Source of the DNA: a virus
Lineage: Duplodnaviria > Heunggongvirae > Uroviricota > Caudoviricetes
Strand: one strand, 5' to 3'
IMG/VR virus record: IMGVR_UViG_2531839252_000006
Length of the DNA stretch: 39,466 nt
Made by a program: the position numbers and the translations under genes
The notes under the pieces: generated by a model
Database searches by the model: none
What the model was told of the DNA's origin: nothing
What the model saw: only the letters and a program-made list of their open reading frames with translations
Shown: positions 34,069 to 35,840 of the stretch, piece by piece
How the letters are laid out: the number at the start of each line of letters is the position of its first letter
How positions within the stretch are numbered: position 1 is the first letter of the stretch

Positions 34069-34776
34069 ATGGATTTGAACAAATTCGATGAGCCATTCAG
34101 CCCTGAAGATATCGAATGGCGAATACAGCAAAGCGGTAAAACACGCGATGGCAAGGTGTGGGCTATGGTGCTGGCTTATGTCACGAACCGGGCAATCATG
34201 AAACGCCTGGACGATGTTTGCGGCAAAGCAGGATGGCGCAATGAATACCGCGATATTCCCAACAACGGCGGAGTTGAATGCGGCATATCAATCAAGATTG
34301 ATTCCGAATGGGTAACCAAATGGGATGCTGCTGAAAACACGCAGGTAGAAGCCGTCAAAGGTGGTCGTTCAGGTGCAATGAAGCGTGCTGCCGTTCAGTG
34401 GGGAATCGGTCGGTATCTGTATAACCTTGAGGAAGGTTTCGCACAAACATCTCTCGATAAAAAGCAGGGGTGGCACAGGGCAAAACTGAAGGATGGAACA
34501 GGATTTTACTGGCTCCCTCCATCGCTGCCGGGATGGGCAATCCCAGCATCAGATAACAAACCATCACCAGAAAATACCAACCAGAAATCTCCATCGGTTG
34601 ACTGCGAACAAATCCTGAAAGACTTCAGCGATTATGCGTCAACAGAAACTGATAAGAAAAAACTCATCGAGCGTTATCAGCGTGACTGGCAATTAATGGC
34701 TGGCAACGAGGAGGCGCAGGCTAAATGCGTTCAGGTAATGAACATCAGAGTTAACGAACTAAAACAGGCGGCATAA
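34069..34776 (+). CDS. Single-strand annealing recombinase, Rad52/Rad22-like, 235 aa.
   Basis: Motif GAMKRAAVQWGIGRYLY resembles the Rad52-family signature; followed by ssb and an exonuclease. Confidence 0.6.
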   Translation: MDLNKFDEPFSPEDIEWRIQQSGKTRDGKVWAMVLAYVTNRAIMKRLDDVCGKAGWRNEYRDIPNNGGVECGISIKIDSEWVTKWDAAENTQVEAVKGGRSGAMKRAAVQWGIGRYLYNLEEGFAQTSLDKKQGWHRAKLKDGTGFYWLPPSLPGWAIPASDNKPSPENTNQKSPSVDCEQILKDFSDYASTETDKKKLIERYQRDWQLMAGNEEAQAKCVQVMNIRVNELKQAA

Positions 34777-35283
34777 ATGGCAAGCAGAGGCGTAAATAAG
34801 GTGATTATCCTTGGTCGGGTAGGACAAGCCCCGGAAGTTCGATACTCACCATCAGGAACAGCGTTAGCTAACCTGACAATAGCCACATCAGAACAATGGC
34901 GAGATAAAAATACTGGCGAGCAAAAGGAATTGACTGAATGGCATCGTGTTGCTGTATCCGGGAAACTGGCTGAGGTCGTGGGGCAGTATGTGAAAAAAGG
35001 TGATCAGATTTATTTCGAGGGAATGCTGAGAACCAGAAAGTGGAAAGACCAGTCAGGGCAAGACCGTTACACAACCGAGGTTCATGTCGGAATTAATGGC
35101 GTGATGCAAATGCTTGGCGGCATTGGCGACAGCAAACAACAAGCAGCCAGCAGGCAATCACAGAAGCCACAGCAGCAATCATCACCAGCACAACACAACG
35201 AACCTCCGATGGATTTTGACGACGATATACCCTTTGCACCAGTAACTCTCCCCTTCCCTCGTCACGCTATTCACGCAATTTAA
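34777..35283 (+). CDS. ssb: Single-stranded DNA-binding protein (OB fold), with a 15-aa extension after the DDDIPF motif.
   Basis: N-terminus [41 protein letters not shown] is a typical SSB; Gln-rich linker; DDDIPF is followed by [15 protein letters not shown] before the stop. Confidence 0.85.
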
Positions 35284-35291
35284 GGACTTAC

Positions 35292-35840
35292 ATGAATCAC
35301 TTAATGGTTGACCTTGAAACAATGGGCAACGGGCCATACTCGCCAGTTATTTCTATTGGGGCGGTATTCTTTGACCCGAATACCGGAGAAACAGGAGAAG
35401 AGTTCTCGGTAAATATCTCGCTTGAGTCATCAATGCGATATCGGGCGCGTCCTGACGCTTCAACGATTTTATGGTGGATGGAACAGAGTGAAGAAGCCAG
35501 AAAATCGCTAACCAGCAACACTCAAGAGCTTTCAACGGCTCTTTCATGGTTATCTGAATTCATCATAAAGAACGCCAACCACAAATTCGTTCAGGTTTGG
35601 GGGAATGGAGCATCATTTGACTGCGTTATTCTCCGCAACAGTTATTCGCTGACAGGGCAGCCAGTTCCGTGGCAGTGGTGGAATGACCGCGACGTAAGAA
35701 CAATCGTCGAACTTGGGAAGGTAATAGGATTCGACCCTAAGCGAGATATGCCATTCAAAGGAACTCGCCACAACGCGCTTGATGATGCCATTCACCAAGC
35801 CAAATACGTTTCAGCGATCTGGAAAAAGTTAGCTAAATAA
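35292..35840 (+). CDS. DEDDh-type 3'-5' exonuclease, 182 aa.
   Basis: Motifs VDLETMG (D-x-E), WGNGASFDCVIL and HNALDDA (H-x4-D) are present. Confidence 0.75.
   Translation: MNHLMVDLETMGNGPYSPVISIGAVFFDPNTGETGEEFSVNISLESSMRYRARPDASTILWWMEQSEEARKSLTSNTQELSTALSWLSEFIIKNANHKFVQVWGNGASFDCVILRNSYSLTGQPVPWQWWNDRDVRTIVELGKVIGFDPKRDMPFKGTRHNALDDAIHQAKYVSAIWKKLAK

Follow-up and report, generated by a model that had tools for sequence, protein, structure and literature searches.

Mobile-element SSBs of the Enterobacterales carry a conserved peptide beyond the acidic tip

[quoted passage not shown] The C-terminal carboxyl group of SSB is anchored by R132 in RecO (PMC3152348) and by R452 in DnaG, a feature described as common to partners (PMC5872125), and partners bury Pro176 and Phe177 of SSB in a hydrophobic pocket (PMC3152348, PMC5872125). 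Among phage proteins, the HK620 SSB ('SSB-2') needs its last six residues, NDYPPF, for the loading and stimulation of Sak4 (PMC5928155, Hutinet et al. 2018). The 'SSB-1' proteins are, in the passages on ssb of a 2025 survey of lambdoid Rec modules (Genome Res 2025, PMC12315714), without experimental study.

Here we analyse an ssb gene of the SSB-1 type in which the tip is followed by further residues. The window, by which we mean the whole stretch of 39,466 nucleotides analysed, comes from a prophage or phage of the P22-like and lambdoid kind, so its ssb is encoded by a mobile element, away from the chromosomal ssb locus. The rest of the window holds a P22-like virion module that shares about 95% identity with phages HZ41 and IME10. 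The features of the ssb region, all on the plus strand, are as follows.

34069..34776, +, Rad52/22-family single-strand annealing protein, upstream of ssb (PF04098, E=5e-26)
34777..35283, +, ssb gene, 168 codons plus stop, a single ORF in the ORF list
34792..35088, +, OB-fold ssDNA-binding domain, residues 6-104 (Pfam match)
35116..35199, +, disordered Gln/Pro-rich linker, residues 114-141 (pLDDT, column entropy)
35200..35235, +, canonical acidic tip, residues 142-153, internal instead of terminal (sequence, ORF list)
35236..35280, +, 15-residue post-tip extension A154-I168, a conserved disordered short linear motif
35263..35280, +, 9-nt tandem duplication CACGCTATT/CACGCAATT encoding HAI-HAI (read from the sequence)
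35292..35840, +, Rv2179c-like (DnaQ-type) 3'-5' exonuclease, downstream of ssb (PF16473, E=6.4e-73)

The gene encodes a single-strand DNA-binding protein of the SSB-1 type, as found in lambdoid recombination modules; the SSBs of HK75 and mEp235 are 99% identical to it. The Pfam SSB family (PF00436) matches residues 6-104 with E=7.8e-36, TIGR00621 gives the protein 163.6 bits (cutoff 53.95), other NCBIfam SSB models match too, and matches among PDB sequences include the SSBs of E. coli and Klebsiella. In an AlphaFold2 model of the monomer, the OB barrel has a pLDDT of 81-88 over residues 11-100, and pLDDT is below 50 from residue 117 through 168. The tip matches D-F-D-D-D-I-P-F of E. coli exactly (residue 147 is at 35215-35217); DDDIPF occupies 35218-35235, and the stop codon lies at 35281-35283. 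In other words, the OB fold and the linker with acidic tip of a bacterial homotetrameric SSB are both present, but the tip is not terminal, since 15 residues follow F153. Judged from its sequence, fold, linker and tip make this a bona fide SSB, but one that lacks the functional hallmark of a terminal tip. Because the TIGR00621, NF004972 and NF005170 profiles all reach their last position at residue 153, the extension lies outside the curated SSB profiles.

The 15 residues after DDDIPF had been pointed out in an initial annotation of this DNA, and re-reading the ORF at 34777..35283 confirmed both its coordinates and its peptide exactly. The sequence offers no frameshift that would yield an IPF-terminated product: past CCC, the +1 frame reads LHQ and then a stop, and no stop follows TTT. 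Programmed frameshifting or readthrough to an IPF end was therefore rejected.

Together with its neighbours, ssb forms the recombination module within an early-left operon of the lambdoid kind. Phage epsilon34 shares the order in which the exonuclease gene follows ssb, and relatives carry abc2 downstream of the exonuclease gene. The TAA of the Rad52-like gene abuts the ATG of ssb (GCATAAATGGCA, 34774-34779), a layout typical of translational coupling. Two substitutions, D18A (34828-34830) and F30L (34864-34866), distinguish the window SSB from those of HK75, Huey and epsilon34, at columns that are each at least 90% conserved in 108 homologues. Among complete E. coli genomes there was no 100% match to the window ssb gene, the best being 99.4%.

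Earlier mention of the extension is scarce. A search of the literature for the peptide, or for extended phage SSB tips, found nothing, and no solved SSB structure with the extension came up in the PDB sequence search. In the lambdoid survey cited above, the passages on ssb, HNH and single-stranded DNA-binding hold no mention of it that we found (PMC12315714). The only prior trace found is a note in the GenBank record of Sf6, which remarks that gp26 shares 14 contiguous residues with 'E. coli SSB'.

A conserved motif in the SSBs of mobile elements

The initial annotation had suggested a comparison with homologues, and the result is largely that of a uniform extension: about 110 of the best 120 SSB homologue clusters carry 15-16 residues after the tip. 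Variants among these clusters include a Klebsiella aerogenes form, APIGLQFSRHSIHAI (Phytobacter), APIGLPYPRHAIYVI (Proteus), APATLPFPSHAVYAI and SPVGLQYGKHRVYAL, and loci taken from genomes and viral contigs add the more distant AYIGLQYPSHAIHSI (Mixta), APIGLMHPTHAIFSI and APFGLQYGKSRIYAL. The extensions IGFGYGVPKSAIHAL and LGHGYGVSRKAIYAIS belong to ssb genes that adjoin topoisomerase and DUF3577 genes. A search of representatives at 50% identity found further post-tip tails, such as APIGLQYPALLSVM, MGLGYDTARSAIYAL and APVPFY. Where an SSB resembles the chromosomal protein of E. coli, it ends with DDDIPF in every one of about 70 species sampled.

The extension of the window fits the motif [AS]-P-x-[TG]-L-x-[FY]-x-[RK]-H-x-[IV]-[HY]-x-[IL] (108 aligned members). 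We counted as members of the family those proteins with 15-16 residues after [DE][IV]PF that fit either this motif or the wider core [RK]-x-A-I-[HY]-A-[IL]; the motif core of the extension itself reads G-x(4)-[RK]-x-A-I-[HY]-A-[IL]-COOH. The distant integrative-element-type variants keep only the last ~7 residues, and the first half of the motif may therefore be confined to certain lineages. Among the 2,623 ORFs of the fetched loci, the C-terminal motif occurs only in SSBs and in the endonuclease of a cassette described below, with one chance hit besides. The duplicated HAI is not universal: Salmonella cluster P0078 (588 member sequences) has one copy only and ends ...PRHAI.

Five loci (L011, L015, L042, L054 and L065) have the layout topoisomerase, DUF3577 and ssb, which we take to be typical of integrative conjugative elements, together with a diverged extension of 15-16 residues; one integrative-element-like record is labelled Pseudomonas lundensis. 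In Proteus and Providencia phage SSBs, the tip is degenerate (PQDWDDPIPF, PQDWDEPIPF, DGEWIDDIPF) and the extension APIGLPYPRHAIYVI is unchanged (loci L139, L145-L147, L154 and L020).

Conservation along the protein was measured as mean column entropy in the 108-sequence alignment: the tip has 0.22 bits, the OB fold 0.34, the extension 0.48 and the linker 1.59. The extension is thus conserved almost as well as the OB fold and far better than the linker, the least conserved part. Specifically, P155 and L158 are invariant in the 108 homologues, and F160, P161, R162, H163, I165 and I168 are each kept at 90% or more. The AlphaFold2 pLDDT of the extension is about 31, and because it lies below 50 we regard the extension as disordered.

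These data show a genuine short linear motif, kept by selection at the C-terminus, that defines a large family of mobile-element SSBs in the Enterobacterales. The family takes in the Rec-module 'SSB-1' proteins of lambdoid prophages together with the SSBs of integrative-element-like loci. That the extension is real, conserved and ancestral we consider very probable. As far as their sequences define them, the extended SSBs are a coherent, previously undescribed subfamily of mobile-element proteins with a capped tip.

Possible functions of the extension

The initial annotation proposed that the extension could alter or block the binding of host proteins, and by analogy with the known partner complexes this is plausible for an internal DDDIPF. 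Phe153 is left without a free alpha-carboxylate, and as a consequence carboxylate-anchored docking to ExoI, RecO, chi, DnaG, RecQ and PriA would be lost or weakened, and ssDNA coated by the element's SSB would fail to recruit host nucleases and helicases in the usual way. What the initial annotation did not foresee is that the extension is itself a conserved motif, and this argues for a specific function beyond simple blocking. Because mere blocking needs no conserved sequence, the extension most likely carries a specific signal; the 15 conserved residues would form a new docking site for another partner, and they probably add a second signal for docking or stability. The partner would most likely be encoded by the host, since the neighbouring recombinase varies and the integrative-element-like loci are without any of them.

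The gene beside the extended ssb may be Rad52-like, ERF, AAA_24, or topoisomerase plus DUF3577, and a partner tied to one family of annealing proteins was rejected on that ground. We also dropped a beta-clamp-binding motif (PVTLPF, compared with what we take to be the beta-clamp hexapeptides QVELEF and QLSLPL), because its Leu and Phe positions are lost in the integrative-element-type variants GFGYGV and GHGYGV.

The best explanation overall is an ancestral, selected motif that caps the tip and signals to another partner, to which we give a probability of roughly 0.55. The narrower proposal, that capping is combined with a new partner-binding motif, is tentative and falls somewhat short of even odds. 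Several observations weigh against the best explanation. The tip of extended SSBs is still extremely conserved, at the 0.22 bits given above, so although internal it still does something and may bind some partners. Sf6 and Huey, in which an endonuclease cassette described below cuts the SSB off from the extension, are viable phages that can do without it, at least in the laboratory. The conservation of only the last ~7 residues in the distant variants counts against it as well. In addition, the E. coli phage set has a tail that is invariant in its DNA, so that recent recombinational spread adds to the uniformity.

The main rival to a reading in terms of capping and docking is a C-terminal degron. 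The end of the extension, ...R-H-A-I-H-A-I-COOH, which is non-polar with basic flanks, would by analogy act as a proteolysis signal of the ClpXP, ClpAP or FtsH type. The element's SSB would then be short-lived and would not disturb the replication of the host after repression of the element, and the endonuclease with its inherited tail would be short-lived likewise. Non-polar C-termini destabilise proteins, and the end of the extension resembles what we take to be the C-terminus of MuA, RRKKAI. The part common to all variants is the last ~7 residues, ending [HY]-[ASVG]-[ILV](S), the tail is disordered and exposed in the models, a host protease would explain why the motif is independent of the neighbouring recombinase, and such a signal would make sense on an endonuclease that inherits the tail. 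The likeness to known degrons such as the ssrA-like or MuA-like ClpX signals is loose, however, and the lambdoid family conserves all 15 residues, including P155, L158, F160, P161, R162 and H163, beyond what known degrons need. On balance we consider a degron unlikely.

A further alternative places the conservation in the DNA and concerns one block at the end of the gene.

35238..35283, +, 46-nt block at the end of ssb or of the endonuclease gene (alignment)

This block would be a mosaic boundary, a recombination or regulatory site, or the target of an endonuclease, with the peptide incidental. It is 100% identical in five aligned phages of E. coli, Shigella and Salmonella despite diverged flanks; the whole 46-mer is found at 100% in 23 of 26 phage records, where it is annotated as SSB or endonuclease and the flanks differ by 10-30%; and it sits at a module junction, with the abc2 or exonuclease gene beyond. 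Outside the E. coli set, however, synonymous sites vary freely while the peptide is kept. Counting synonymous and non-synonymous differences from the window, we found 7/0 in L132, 5/0 in L133, 2/0 in L005 and 2/0 in L109, and the pooled pN/pS is 0.42 over 14 distinct tails, with pS near saturation. The family-wide constraint therefore sits on the peptide. Neither a promoter-like nor a terminator-like site was seen at the block, nor was RNA structure (z = +0.30), and the 46-mer was rejected as a DNA or boundary element that would be the main cause of the conservation; we think it very unlikely. That E. coli phages have an invariant 46-mer is put down to its recent spread or to recombination at the module junction; such recombination probably explains the local uniformity but not the conservation across the family.

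A putative endonuclease cassette at the end of ssb

In two close relatives the SSB ends canonically, in Huey as ...NFDDEIPF-stop and in Sf6 as ...NFDDSDIPF-stop. In both, a gene for a putative endonuclease of 155-159 residues lies 8-15 nt downstream of ssb, and its C-terminus matches the extension.

35235..35236, +, insertion site of the cassette, between F153 and A154, empty in the window and filled in relatives

Sf6, Huey and IME10 carry this cassette, of the Sf6-gp26 type, as do about 98 complete genomes of E. coli, and its endonuclease is unannotated in E. coli RefSeq genomes among the matches listed. It is absent from the window, where the next gene is that of the Rv2179c-like exonuclease. 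We located it in L001 (1978-2445), L002 (1984-2463), L111, L116-L118, L143, L148, L150, L151, L155, L159 and L160. The endonucleases of L116-L118 end in the complete 15-residue extension, with GCA or GCG as the Ala codon; since they include Ala154, the junction lies exactly between F153 and A154.

The extension-like tail is not native to the endonuclease. Sf6 gp26 matches phrog_2340 (E=2.6e-47) with a profile that covers residues 1-143 only, and in a 61-member alignment the conservation of the endonuclease family stops at ...WHKHNKPIY, beyond which the tails are unrelated (PEDLKAA, GEAA, PEDNQANTPSNPDLTQ). The AlphaFold2 model of the endonuclease has a pLDDT of 97-98 for residues 1-140 and 41-67 for the tail. 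A Foldseek search with the model of this putative HNH-like endonuclease gave no significant match.

Alleles that bear the endonuclease also have a recoded tip (35208-35235). The 27-28 nt that precede the stop hold 8 of the 21 differences between the window and Huey (binomial p = 1.7e-8) and 10 of the 25 between Sf6 and HZ41 (binomial p = 9e-11). Where the endonuclease family follows other ssb genes, listed below, the ORF upstream of it ends PPM(N/D)FDD(S/E/DQ)DIPF-stop in every case, which suggests that the cassette targets, or carries, the sequence coding for the tip. The simplest reading is a mobile cassette directed at the conserved tip-coding DNA of ssb. It would bring a recoded tip with its stop, then a ribosome-binding site, and last an endonuclease ORF that lacks a stop codon. 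In the E. coli lineage it would have landed between F153 and A154 of an extended ssb, the endonuclease reading into the old extension. On this comparative anatomy the alleles of Sf6 and Huey that stop after IPF are derived, with the extension ancestral to them.

The same endonuclease family also follows other ssb genes, in L169 (2061-2974), L171/L172 (2041-2935) and L173/L174 (2031-2992). In L169 and L173/L174 the N-terminus of the upstream protein looks unrelated to that of the window SSB, and the L173/L174 protein is without a Pfam SSB match. A second type of endonuclease borders ssb in L119 (2734-3231), L140 (2188-2709), L142 (2484-3011) and L172 (1577-2044). The L119 nuclease matches phrog_1872 and phrog_59, has no detectable similarity to the Sf6-gp26 type and is resembled by that of L140; those of L142 and L172 match PF13392 (HNH_3). 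Mobile nuclease genes seem to have a hot spot at the flanks of ssb. In L111 (3466-3945) and L118 (3468-3947) the endonuclease tail has H replaced by N at the H/Y position and L by F at the invariant Leu, substitutions that are absent from the 108 SSBs and hint at relaxed constraint on the endonuclease-borne tail. Klebsiella phage phiKp_30 (L006, 2350-2550) holds a decayed remnant of the endonuclease gene, in which ~90 nt of unrelated sequence stand between ~34 nt from the 5' end and the final ~70 nt, with the tail altered to ...PRHAAYAI. Chimeric ORFs that join SSB to endonuclease or endonuclease to exonuclease are found in P0011, P0014, P0024, P0053, P0060 and P0063.

The cassette could also be read in the opposite direction, as we did in our starting hypothesis: an ancestral ssb ending in IPF and a stop was followed by the endonuclease gene, an in-frame deletion, running from the ssb stop almost to the end of that gene, fused its last 14 codons to ssb, and the tail is a tolerated remnant. 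The tail is indeed identical to the endonuclease C-terminus, with 46 nt of identical DNA, and the endonuclease gene does decay, as the phiKp_30 remnant and the chimeric ORFs attest. Yet the tail lies beyond the endonuclease family profile and is disordered there; endonuclease homologues that adjoin other ssb genes have unrelated tails; and some endonucleases carry the full 15 residues, Ala154 included. Diverged extensions occur in Proteus, Mixta and Klebsiella phage SSBs and in integrative-element-like ones, at least the five integrative-element-like and seven phage loci examined have no such endonuclease next to ssb, and the extension is under purifying selection. We rejected the deletion scar on the homologue surveys, the endonuclease profile and alignment, and the disordered tail in the model, and regard it as most improbable.

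With the extension read as ancestral, the stop of the relatives is the later arrival. The initial annotation had raised a lost stop codon or a read error; the lost stop is turned round, the stop in close relatives having come with the endonuclease cassette. Identical or near-identical extended ORFs are found in HK75, mEp235, mEpX2, epsilon34, g341c, ECP1, CP-1639 and HZ41, with DNA identity of 99% in HK75, mEp235 and mEpX2 and 88.8% in the Salmonella phages epsilon34 and g341c. In ECP1 and HZ41 the extension sits on SSB bodies only 72-75% identical, and in CP-1639 on a similar, Sf6-type body. Among complete E. coli genomes, 296 of 5,426 cover the tip and extension (89-nt probe, coverage of at least 80%). 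A sequencing or assembly error or a stop lost privately in this genome, for which nothing speaks beyond the prior expectation of the initial annotation, is effectively excluded because the extended ORF, with the same frame and junction, spans these phage isolates and hundreds of independent genomes.

Significance and comparison with known systems

A large family of phage and integrative-element-like SSBs keeps the tip yet buries it under a second conserved motif. Some 5% of complete E. coli genomes have a member of this family, as do many genomes of Klebsiella, Salmonella, Citrobacter and Proteus, and annotation pipelines call all of its members plain 'SSB'. If the cap does block host proteins or recruit a new partner, it would show elements shielding their ssDNA from host nucleases or reprogramming its processing. 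It would also bear on the choice of SSB and annealase pairs for recombineering, and would offer a natural 'internal tip' control for studies of SSB interactions. The alleles that carry the cassette are ready, natural uncapped comparators. The broadest proposal, that capped-tip SSBs form a class that would divert the element's ssDNA from the host SSB interactome to a different partner or protease, with the cassette toggling between capped and canonical forms, is possible, but we hold it with still less confidence than the combination of capping and partner binding.

Among known proteins, the E. coli chromosomal SSB (PF00436/TIGR00621; PDB 1EQQ, 4MZ9) shares the OB fold, the disordered Gln/Pro-rich linker and an identical tip with the window SSB, and over residues 1-113 most positions agree with the Klebsiella-type chain 7f2n in the stretches of alignment printed. 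The difference is at the end: the chromosomal protein stops at Phe with a free carboxylate for docking, whereas the window SSB goes on for 15 conserved residues. The SSB of HK620 belongs, like that of the window, to a phage Rec module, and a specific interaction depends on its C-terminal residues, as it may in the window SSB; but it is distant and differently built, with a terminal tip and no extension after it.

Closest of all are Sf6 gp27 and ES18 gp48, lambdoid Rec-module 'SSB-1' proteins (PMC12315714) whose genes occupy the same place, between the annealing protein and abc2 or a nuclease. The SSB-1 bodies are 70-97% identical to the window SSB, and Sf6 gp27 ends ...NFDDSDIPF-stop because the endonuclease cassette with gp26 lies between it and the extension. 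Phages also carry free-standing homing-endonuclease cassettes, such as the seg and mob genes of T4. The Sf6-gp26-type cassette is like these in occupying one precise site in a conserved gene, in being present or absent between near-identical alleles, and in having clustered substitutions that flank the insertion.
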